Source of the DNA: an uncultured Clostridia bacterium
GTDB lineage: Bacteria; Bacillota; Clostridia; TANB77; CAG-508
Length of the DNA stretch: 64,000 nucleotides
Direction of reading: 5' to 3'
NCBI GenBank assembly: GCA_948524275.1
Contig: CAOSLI010000002.1
Location: 51,953-115,952, forward strand
In this document: positions 49,219 to 50,632 of the stretch, in pieces
How positions within the stretch are numbered: position 1 is the first letter of the stretch
How the letters are laid out: every line of letters starts with the position of its first letter
Position numbers and translations under genes: made by a program
The notes under the pieces: generated by a model
The model's input: only the letters and a program-made list of their open reading frames with translations
The model's database searches: none
What the model was told of the DNA's origin: nothing

Positions 49219-49644
49219 TTAATTACCATTGCCGAAAATATTGTTTACAATACTTGTAACTATATTAAATATTCCAACTGCTCCATATACTAAAGCTACT
49301 GATACAACATACCATATTAGCTTTTGCTTAACATTAGCCTTTTGATCTGCTCCACTTAACATATATTTAATTCCAAGTATTAGTCCAACAATAACTAATA
49401 CAACAGTTGCTATTTGAACTAATATTCTTCCTATCGGTAAAAATTGATTTATTGCTTCTTGTTGTGAAATTTTAGGCTTACTTCCTTTATTTATGAATTC
49501 ATCTCCGTCTGATATAATATCTCCAACTCCACCTGCTGATGCAATTTCTATTCTATCTCCACTTGCTTGTACACAAGTTGTACCTAATAGCATTATTATC
49601 AATATTGATAGTATTGTTTTTAAAGCTTTGCTCATTATTCTCAC
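49219..49644 (-). CDS. VirB2/TrbC-like pilin-type protein (signal peptide plus two TM helices), paralog 3
   Basis: Signal peptide ...CVQASG, then two hydrophobic helices separated by a short polar loop. 141 aa. Confidence 0.45.
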   Translation of the reverse strand: MRIMSKALKTILSILIIMLLGTTCVQASGDRIEIASAGGVGDIISDGDEFINKGSKPKISQQEAINQFLPIGRILVQIATVVLVIVGLILGIKYMLSGADQKANVKQKLIWYVVSVALVYGAVGIFNIVTSIVNNIFGNGN

Positions 49645-49696
49645 CTTGTATGAAATTTAAAATCATACTTTCCCTTCTCTTTTTATATTTTTATGT

Positions 49697-50050
49697 TTAG
49701 AATAGTCTGTTCATTGCAATATCAGCGATAATTCTTACCATTGTACCTACTCCAAATAATATAAATGCCCCTATTGCATATGCTATAAGTTCTTTTTTTG
49801 CTTCTGCTTTTGCTTCTGGTGCTTTATTCATAAGACCTACACCTTTATATAATAATATAATTATCGCTGCTGCATAACATATAAATTGTACTAATCCTAT
49901 TATCTTTCCACCTATTGAATTATACTTTTGGTCTCCACTATTCTGATATATTCCTTCTAATCCTGTGGCATTTGAGATTATACTTAATGCACCTAATAAA
50001 TATATTATTGTAACTATTATTGTTATAATCTTAGTTAATTTTTTATTCAT
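49697..50050 (-). CDS. VirB2/TrbC-like pilin-type protein, paralog 2
   Basis: 117 aa. IIGLVQFICYAAAIIILL shared with paralog 1. Signal peptide plus two TM helices. Confidence 0.5.
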   Translation of the reverse strand: MNKKLTKIITIIVTIIYLLGALSIISNATGLEGIYQNSGDQKYNSIGGKIIGLVQFICYAAAIIILLYKGVGLMNKAPEAKAEAKKELIAYAIGAFILFGVGTMVRIIADIAMNRLF

Positions 50051-50189
50051 TTTTAAGTCTTCCTTTCTGTTTTATTCAATGTTGCCTAATATGCTTATAA
50101 TTATGCACTTATATTATACAATGTTAGTAGTCATGTTTCAAGAGTTTTGGCTAAATTTAATGTATTTGTAACATTTTATTTAGCATATA

Positions 50190-50228
50190 TATACAAAAAA
50201 TAAAAAGCGTACAAACTGTACGCTTTTT
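50190..50228 (-). terminator. strong intrinsic terminator immediately after the first pilin-like gene (AAGCGTACA-aact-TGTACGCTT followed by TTTTTATTTTTTG on the minus strand)
   Basis: Perfect 9-bp stem followed by a long T-run in the transcription direction. Confidence 0.75.
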
Positions 50229-50242
50229 CATTATCTTTCTTA

Positions 50243-50632
50243 TTATTGTCCTTGTGCTGGTGTTGTCGTGCCATTTTCTTCTCCAAGTGTCTTTCCTGCA
50301 ACATTTCTTACTAGATTTAATAAAGCTCCTGCTGCAAATACTAGTACTGCACCTACAACATATATGATGGCGCTCTTTTTAATCTCAGCTTTTCCATCTG
50401 GTGAAGCTGTCATAAACTTAACACCTAACATTACTATCATAATTACTGCTGCTGCATAACAAATAAATTGTACTATACCAATTATGTTTCCAACAGGATT
50501 TTTTAATGTGTCAACTGCATCTGCCTTTGCTGAAGGAATTTCAACTGTAGCAAATACCATACTAAAAGCTGATAATATTGTAGCAACTATTAATAAAACT
50601 GTTACTATTTTTGACATTTTCTTTATAGACAT
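50243..50632 (-). CDS. VirB2/TrbC-like pilin-type protein, paralog 1 (probable major subunit)
   Basis: 129 aa. Signal peptide ending AKA, helices IIGIVQFICYAAAVIMIVMLGV and SAIIYVVGAVLVFAAGALL. Has its own consensus promoter and terminator. Confidence 0.5.
   Translation of the reverse strand: MSIKKMSKIVTVLLIVATILSAFSMVFATVEIPSAKADAVDTLKNPVGNIIGIVQFICYAAAVIMIVMLGVKFMTASPDGKAEIKKSAIIYVVGAVLVFAAGALLNLVRNVAGKTLGEENGTTTPAQGQ

Follow-up and report, generated by a model that had tools for sequence, protein, structure and literature searches.

The 64-kb window analyzed here, by which we mean the whole stretch of DNA under study (positions 51,953 to 115,952 of contig CAOSLI010000002.1, from an uncultured Clostridia bacterium of the order TANB77, family CAG-508), carries on its minus strand, at approximately 32.9-50.7 kb, a locus headed by 3 small tandem genes, pil1, pil2, and pil3. 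We conclude that these genes probably encode VirB2/TrbC-family pilin subunits of a type IV secretion system (T4SS) of the MPF_FATA kind (MPF, mating-pair formation), which has been domesticated and is inherited vertically in TANB77-like gut Clostridia, a monoderm lineage.

Three paralogous VirB2/TrbC-like proteins

All 3 open reading frames (ORFs) are found on the minus strand where the original prediction had placed 3 tandem VirB2/TrbC-like paralogs: pil1 at 50243-50632 (129 amino acids, aa), pil2 at 49697-50050 (117 aa), and pil3 at 49219-49635 (138 aa). The products of pil1 and pil2 are 36% identical over 110 aa (pairwise E-value of 4e-28), those of pil1 and pil3 36% over 75 aa (5e-13) and those of pil2 and pil3 27% (5e-5). 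The core IIG(I/L)VQFICYAAA, previously noted as common to 2 of the proteins, is present in Pil1 (NIIGIVQFICYAAAV) and Pil2 (KIIGLVQFICYAAAI). Pil1 exceeds the curated cut-offs of PF04956 (TrbC/VirB2; 32.4 versus 27.9 bits), with residues 10-107 aligned to positions 13-97 of the 98-position model, as well as of PF18895 (T4SS_pilin; 30.3 versus 26.6 bits), and Pil3 exceeds the latter cut-off with 28.7 bits. Among the aligned family members, PF18895 is matched by 46/46 and PF04956 by 43/46. Furthermore, pil3 is directly followed by genes encoding a PrgI-family protein and the N-terminal (VirB4N) and ATPase parts of VirB4, which reproduces the canonical virB2-virB3-virB4 order. The VirB2/TrbC-like identity proposed from the letters of the sequence is thus upheld by family models, relatives, and gene order.

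For pil3, the likelier start is the ATG at 49635, which is located 5 nt after the ribosome-binding site AAGGTGAG and is also the start in public gene calls. The mechanical ORF call begins at a GTG (49644, yielding 141 aa), which lies 9 nt upstream of the ATG and falls within the likely ribosome-binding site.

Each protein has a hydrophobic signal-like N-terminus with an A-x-A-type end, followed by 2 hydrophobic helices separated by a short Lys-rich loop. Hydropathy analysis locates the A-x-A-type sites at VFA/T, SNA/T, and VQA/S in the 3 pilins, and the signal peptide of Pil1 is predicted to be cleaved after VFA28. An AlphaFold (AF2) model of Pil1, built from a 46-sequence alignment, places a signal helix at residues 3-27 and pairs helices 41-75 and 78-117 in a hairpin, so that the hydropathy segments and the model agree with the signal peptide and the 2 hydrophobic helices of the original prediction. 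Within the family, the conserved columns correspond to both helices and the loop (P78, K81, A82, K85, and K86; entropy of 0.3-0.8 bits) and the variable ones to the mature N-terminus and the C-terminal tail (1.7-2.4 bits). The mature N-terminus of Pil3 is longer than that of the pil1/pil2 type. In solved conjugative pili, both termini are exposed on the outside of the filament, with the loop lining the lumen.

Homologues of Pil1 number 375, and the 3 that carry a source name are labeled "hypothetical protein." A search of 1.84 billion proteins with the pilin profile gave 5,967 cluster representatives at E ≤ 1e-3, and 10/10 sampled clusters lacked a name or other annotation. Some metagenomic relatives of Pil1 (P0157, P0203, and P0297) contain 2 to 5 tandem pilin hairpins per polypeptide, with 5 in P0157, and some of these poly-hairpin relatives add N-terminal extracellular domains, one of them with dockerin-like DxNGNGxV repeats. 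Because several of the tandem-hairpin relatives recur on independent contigs, they are probably real poly-pilins.

Two transcription units in the pilin array

The perfect promoter and hairpin terminator described for pil1 in the original prediction both withstood scrutiny. An exact TTGACA-17-TATAAT promoter (12/12 score; minus strand, 50692 to 50664) ends 31 nt upstream of the pil1 ATG, and a ribosome-binding site, AAGGAGG (50641-50647), can be read 8 nt upstream of the same ATG. The gene is followed by an intrinsic terminator (50228 to 50202 on the minus strand, with the terminator readable on both strands), which consists of a perfect 12-bp stem, a 3-nt loop, and a T-run (−16.3 kcal/mol, z = −4.4); 0/200 shuffled sequences fold as well. 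Exact TTGACA-17-TATAAT sites occur 5 times in the window, compared with 0.05 expected from shuffles. The pil1 promoter is conserved rather than a chance match, because 13 other species also have a perfect promoter at this spacing (28-39 nt upstream of the pil1 orthologue), among them species in which pil1 is on the opposite strand. The 4 further exact sites, at 2896-2924 and 13855-13883 on the plus strand and at 17366-17394 and 17956-17984 on the minus strand, probably mark other strongly expressed genes; one of them sits just 5′ of a ClpC-like gene. An Rfam scan of the window detected 2 tRNAs only, with no riboswitch or leader near the pilin genes.

A second promoter, TTGAAA-17-TATAAT (11/12; 50113-50141, minus strand), had previously been overlooked. 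It precedes pil2 and would serve pil2, pil3, prgI, virB4, and the genes beyond, and TTGAAA-17/18-TATAAT recurs ahead of the pilin gene with which the assembly operon begins, in most of approximately 60 species loci. Judging from these signals, the array is organized into 2 transcription units, with pil1 alone under strong signals and pil2 and pil3 together with the machinery genes. The arrangement of promoter and terminator around pil1 therefore stands as originally described, but the account of downstream expression needs refining: because the second promoter precedes pil2, downstream expression need not come from read-through, and attenuation past the pil1 terminator is possible but not required.

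A Spo0E-like gene (50750-50932, minus strand) adjoins pil1 and stays with it. In 5 species (loci L005, L006, L008, L010, and L011, at approximately 4.6-7.2 kb), the 2 genes are inverted as a unit relative to the rest of the locus. In at least L005 and L008, the perfect promoter and a terminator still accompany the inverted pil1; over-long ORF calls hide the promoter region in the remaining 3. A phase-variation switch at the spo0E-pil1 segment was considered and rejected: no convincing inverted repeats flank the segment in the window, and we therefore read the inversion as an evolutionary rearrangement.

Secretion machinery encoded in the locus

Downstream of pil3, the minus strand encodes, in this order, the PrgI-family protein, VirB4N, VirB4, VirB6-like proteins, and hydrolases, and then a protein with an NTF2 fold. 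The PrgI-family protein (48763-49191) is a VirB3-like membrane protein, with 26.4 bits against a cut-off of 27 on PF12666 and a precomputed PrgI hit. VirB4 is split into 2 genes. The first (47582-48763) encodes a 393-aa VirB4 N-terminal-domain protein with one transmembrane helix, which corresponds to positions 48-315 of the VirB4_plasma model and has a precomputed hit to PF26593 (TraC-like). The second (45603-47558) encodes the 651-aa C-terminal ATPase part, which corresponds to positions 272-893 and matches PF19044 (2.8e-16) and the NCBIfam CD1110-type VirB4 model (1.3e-67), the score of the latter (228.7 bits) being under the equivalog cut-off of 325. The split is kept in all relatives and also in the Clostridium plasmid modules described below. 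Residues 263-270 of the ATPase part form a Walker A motif, GKSGAGKG, in which the P-loop Lys is followed by Gly instead of the usual Ser/Thr. The Gly form is found in 55/59 VirB4 orthologues and GKSGAGKS in the other 4.

Three genes encode VirB6-like polytopic proteins: one of 396 aa (44401-45591), with several predicted transmembrane segments and weak matches to the Mbov_0396 and MMCAP2_0566 transmembrane-protein models of integrative and conjugative elements (ICEs), and 2 extended versions of 893 aa (39157-41838) and 830 aa (36684-39176). Each contains a T4SS_pilin-like hairpin that scores below the PF18895 threshold, at 22, 19.5 (residues 220-300 of the 893-aa protein), and 17.6 bits, respectively. 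When the pilin profile was compared by hhalign with the 396-aa protein and with a 127-aa protein of C. botulinum, the same loop-plus-helix motif was aligned, with negligible probability for these single-sequence targets. The suggested resemblance between VirB6-like proteins and pilins is thus that of the sub-threshold Pfam matches.

The locus further encodes an NlpC/P60 cell-wall hydrolase (41876-42832; PF00877, 27.8 bits versus a cut-off of 23), which we regard as a VirB1 analogue; a bitopic 739-aa protein (34363-36582) with a weak, sub-threshold M23 peptidase signal (18 bits); a bitopic 502-aa protein (42880-44388), which has no assigned role and is kept in the locus; and 2 bitopic proteins of 172 and 311 aa (32885-34366), which are candidate VirB8-like components, the 311-aa one with an NTF2-like ectodomain. 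No VirB5-like tip protein was found in the locus. Domains of coupling ATPases (VirD4, TcpA, or FtsK-like) were not detected in ORFs of at least 90 aa in the locus (31.5-50.7 kb) or in the scanned larger ORFs of the flanks, and neither the locus nor the other scanned ORFs of the window contain relaxase or integrase domains.

Conservation and inheritance of the locus

A scan for VirB4 in one genome per species found it encoded in at least 545 genomes, of which the best 80 loci were kept and examined (approximately 22 kb per related locus, in addition to the 64 kb of the window). Across these 80 best loci, all from metagenome-assembled genomes of uncultured gut Clostridia, VirB4 is 72%-89% identical. 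They include CAG:354 and Candidatus Scatovivens, both of which were placed by 2 papers in the GTDB order TANB77, family CAG-508, and one of the loci is on a 1.8-Mb circular chromosome. It is through these named relatives that the analysis assigned the window to TANB77. The order M16a, M16b, Spo0E-like, pilins, PrgI, VirB4N, VirB4, and VirB6-like is conserved in most of the 80 loci, and the same housekeeping flank of M16 peptidases and the Spo0E-like gene is present in approximately 40 species. The flanking M16 peptidases are 43%-80% identical in the same loci (medians of 47% and 61%), below the median VirB4 identity of 76%, and the pilins are the least conserved (34%-41%). The identities of VirB4 and M16b co-vary (rho = 0.67, p = 1.5e-6). 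No second recurrent P-loop ORF was found within 10 kb of VirB4 across the 80 loci. Collectively, the shared housekeeping flanks, the co-divergence of VirB4 with M16b, the conservation of VirB4, and the lack of a second P-loop ORF nearby argue that the locus is a vertically inherited, selected (that is, domesticated) chromosomal system of TANB77-like Clostridia and not a mobile element. On this point the original prediction, which had spoken of Firmicutes MPF systems, needs refining: what we find is a conserved chromosomal system lacking a coupling protein and relaxase in cis.

Where the contig extends far enough, a pilin-family gene is almost always located directly upstream of the PrgI and VirB4 genes. 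The arrays comprise 1 to 7 genes, with 3 in 39 loci, 4 in 15, 6 or 7 in 4, and 1 or 2 in 18, although some of the small counts stem from arrays cut off by the end of a contig. Most arrays close with a pil3-type gene, adjoining that for PrgI, after 1 to 5 copies of the pil1/pil2 type. Neither megablast of 6 kb of the locus nor tblastn of Pil1 yielded matches to plasmids; in the case of the pilins, this is because they are too divergent for a plasmid link to be made by BLAST.

Comparison with known systems

The closest parallels to the array are found in Patescibacteria, where arrays of 2-11 virB2 genes with a mean identity of 25% are located near virB4 in mostly relaxase-less systems (PMC12102498; PMC12857230). 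Like these systems, for example that of Candidatus Southlakia epibionticum, the present one belongs to a monoderm host with a reduced genome and combines a tandem array of divergent VirB2-like genes (27%-36% identity) with a chromosomal MPF_FATA-like VirB4, VirB3-like and VirB6-like genes, and cell-wall hydrolases just downstream, with no relaxase in cis. Both lineages are also reported to have a type IV-related pilus system, which in Patescibacteria consists of type IV pili and in TANB77 of a Tad cluster. The present system differs in its Bacillota host, the split VirB4, and the 3 VirB6-like genes. In addition, a VirD4-like gene is listed for Southlakia in a review, whereas none is found in the locus described here.

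The archaeal Ced and Ted DNA import systems are likewise domesticated chromosomal T4SS derivatives with VirB2-, VirB6-, and VirB4-like parts and no relaxase; the TedC pilin has a cleavable signal peptide, and a likeness between the VirB6-type protein and the pilin has been noted both for CedA and CedA1 and for VirB6 and VirB2 (PMC9905601). The similarity of the VirB6-like proteins to the pilins echoes the N-terminal CedA resemblance in Ced/Ted, here at sub-threshold level. The system does not belong to Ced by sequence, with 23.3 bits for CedB against a cut-off of 700 and 25.9 bits for CedD against 600. Unlike Ced/Ted, it includes peptidoglycan hydrolases, as befits a bacterial wall, and is known from its genes, DNA import being a feature of Ced/Ted.

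With the Gram-negative VirB2/TrbC/TraA pilins (PF04956), the proteins share the near-full-length model match, the signal peptide, the two-helix hairpin, and the virB2-virB3-virB4 gene order. Mature VirB2 and TraA are approximately 70-75 aa in length, and the mature proteins encoded here, at approximately 90-115 aa, are longer. Further differences from the Gram-negative systems are the monoderm host, the lack of an outer-membrane complex and of VirB5, and the fact that no cyclase or acetylase gene was seen in the locus.

Within and around Bacillota, modules of related composition are known from mobile elements. The ICE of Mycoplasma, a wall-less relative of Bacillota, contains a small-protein, polytopic-protein, and VirB4 module (NCBIfam NF045849, Mbov_0395 family; Mbov_0396; and Mbov_0397, VirB4). 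Pil3, the VirB6-like protein, and VirB4 all match the Mycoplasma ICE models, far under the equivalog cut-offs (18.7 versus 40 and 210 versus 590), and unlike the chromosomal array, this ICE is mobile and has a single pilin-like gene. The nearest plasmid VirB4s (31%-42% identity) are encoded by C. botulinum p12/29, C. beijerinckii, and a 300-kb plasmid of C. difficile. The same module order is present in C. botulinum p12/29 (NZ_KT897275, locus L085, 9247-15668) and C. difficile BI1 (NC_017177, locus L086, 5056-11519), namely, a pilin-like gene, PrgI, VirB4N, VirB4, a VirB6-like protein of approximately 870 aa, and then a peptidase. These plasmid modules are extrachromosomal and contain a single pilin-like gene, which scores 18-23 bits on PF18895, below the cut-off. 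In both inspected modules, all genes other than those for VirB4 and PrgI are annotated as hypothetical, and the plasmids are typed as non-mobilizable. The shared order and the presence of a pilin-like gene in the 2 inspected plasmid modules indicate that the pilin-bearing module is a wider, unrecognized Clostridial T4SS subtype, which the TANB77-like lineage appears to have fixed in the chromosome with an amplified pilin.

A different surface-filament locus has been described in the same order, the TANB77 Tad cluster with "pilin 938," in a paper that does not mention T4SS, VirB, or TrbC (PMC11680825). It too is conserved in the lineage and has several pilin-like genes with their own promoters, but it differs in encoding a TadA/CpaF ATPase, a TadB/C platform, and type IV-like pilins with one transmembrane helix.

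Alternative explanations

Short two-helix membrane proteins match many unrelated transmembrane families weakly, and fold searches with them are non-specific, so that holins, bacteriocin immunity proteins, or other small membrane proteins unrelated to pilins might resemble them through their hydrophobic helices. Similarity to such a family had been named beforehand as what would overturn the pilin assignment. None was matched: there was no holin or immunity match in Pfam and no functional match, and hence no holin, in PHROGs. Only the 2 pilin families exceed the curated cut-offs, and they do so throughout the relatives as given above; the adjacency to VirB3 and VirB4 is kept in nearly all of the 80 species loci with sufficient contig. 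We regard this explanation as close to refuted. It is also very unlikely that the locus is the MPF module of an integrated conjugative element that makes true conjugative pili, with its relaxase and coupling protein encoded elsewhere. The nearest VirB4 relatives outside the lineage are on Clostridium plasmids (42% identity) that bear the same module, and coupling-protein genes may lie far from virB4. Yet there is neither an integrase nor a shift in GC content at the locus, a second ATPase is missing within 10 kb of VirB4 throughout the 80 species loci, the same housekeeping flanks recur in approximately 40 species and co-diverge with the locus, and VirB4 is better conserved than these flanking housekeeping genes.

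The main competing explanation accepts the family assignment and holds that the VirB2-family subunits stay in the envelope as part of a channel or stalk, with no extended pilus. According to a 2025 review, VirB2 is required even in systems without pili; the pilin-like hairpins in the 3 VirB6-like proteins suggest mixed membrane assemblies, and the locus lacks a VirB5-like tip protein. We nonetheless consider an envelope-bound role unlikely: the dedicated promoter and terminator of pil1 imply a large molar excess of its product, which fits a polymer better than a channel part of fixed stoichiometry, and the multiplication of pilin genes, with variable termini that are predicted to be exposed, suggests a product at the cell surface.

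Several observations temper the assignment of Pil1-3 as pilin subunits of a domesticated T4SS. The score of Pil2 on PF18895 (24.3 bits) is slightly under the cut-off of 26.6, although by its sequence Pil2 is clearly a paralogue of Pil1. The pilin model has moderate confidence only (predicted local distance difference test score, pLDDT, of 72); fold searches with it returned generic helical hairpins and no solved pilin, and the pilin-family profile searched against all PDB sequences also found no solved pilin, only spurious matches to viral transmembrane segments. The odd Walker A motif of VirB4 might affect its ATPase activity. Pilus formation and the function of the system are deduced from gene content, and genes for a coupling protein or a relaxase may be present outside the inspected 64 kb and the approximately 22 kb per related locus.

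Proposed mechanism

If Pil1-3 are indeed pilin subunits, the prepilins would enter the membrane through Sec, and signal peptidase I would cleave them after the A-x-A-type site, leaving a helical hairpin in the membrane with both ends outside and the Lys-rich loop on the cytoplasmic side. The VirB4 ATPase, together with VirB3 and the VirB6-like platform, would then extract the subunits and stack them into a tubular filament, which would cross the peptidoglycan where the NlpC/P60 and M23-like hydrolases had opened it. Pil1, whose dedicated consensus promoter and terminator would let it accumulate in large excess, would be the bulk subunit (candidate major subunit), and Pil2 and Pil3, made stoichiometrically with the machinery, may be base, initiator, or variant subunits. 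Since neither a coupling protein nor a relaxase was found in the locus, the role of the filament would most likely be in cell-cell contact or in uptake or exchange, as proposed for Patescibacteria and archaeal Ced/Ted, with plasmid-style DNA export being less likely.

A bolder proposal, which we think quite unlikely to be correct in full, is that TANB77 builds VirB2 pili from this relaxase-less domesticated T4SS and uses them along with the Tad pilus. These pili would mediate obligate contact with partner cells or the host, or uptake from them, much as has been proposed for epibiotic Patescibacteria. If true, TANB77 would be the first Bacillota with VirB2 pili, and VirB2 would be ancestral in monoderm MPF_FATA systems, not borrowed by Patescibacteria from diderm ones.

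Genomic context in the window

The locus is flanked on one side by genes for M16 peptidases, alanine racemase, and NrdD and on the other by those for a D-Ala-D-Ala carboxypeptidase, tRNAs, MraW, and ClpC. The GC content is 26%-35% per 2-kb segment and approximately 30% overall, with no step at the pilin locus. A run of genes at 3850-14911, unrelated to the pilin locus, resembles a phage or defense remnant and includes a Bro-N protein, a KAP-family P-loop NTPase, a RecD2-like helicase, and a 241-aa protein with a single-stranded DNA-binding (SSB) domain. The window also encodes a 1273-aa DUF11-repeat protein (27163-30984), which is probably on the surface, and a sortase (62893-63630); given this presumed location of the DUF11 protein, the pair would fit a Gram-positive, wall-anchoring envelope.

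Implications for monoderm secretion systems and the TANB77 lineage

That VirB2-like pilins are unusual in Firmicutes, as remarked in the original prediction, agrees with the current literature. A review of December 2025 regards VirB2 as absent from Gram-positive systems, with Patescibacteria as the sole exception, and in 2025 the Patescibacteria systems were described in a review as unique among monoderms in their potential for conjugative pili; the Patescibacteria survey of the same year left open whether these pilins came from a diderm source, "given their absence in MPF_FATA" (PMC12102498; PMC12857230). The papers on pLS20 and on Ced/Ted (PMC9905601) likewise assume that pili are absent in monoderm bacteria. 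A full-text literature search returned nothing relevant for TANB77 with type IV secretion or for VirB2 with Clostridia, monoderm, or pilin. The protein family has already been modeled by curators (PF18895 and the NCBIfam Mbov_0395 family pilin-like conjugal transfer protein), so that the family itself is known and it is the setting that is new to the searched literature.

The locus extends the Patescibacteria exception to Bacillota, with pilin arrays inside an MPF_FATA-like locus of a large lineage. Together, the lineage with arrays and the single pilin-like genes of the Clostridium plasmid modules make an ancestral monoderm origin of the pilins plausible, and Firmicutes genes are now at hand for testing whether a conjugative-type pilus can pass through a thick wall. 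The value of the finding lies in VirB2 pilin arrays in Bacillota and in the conservation of a domesticated T4SS throughout an uncultured order of clinical note. TANB77 has a small genome and has been reported as a biomarker of the response to cancer immunotherapy via its other surface filament (PMC11680825). A second lineage-wide surface polymer, probably highly expressed, would bear on how TANB77 lives, how it might be cultivated, and how it interacts with the host immune system.

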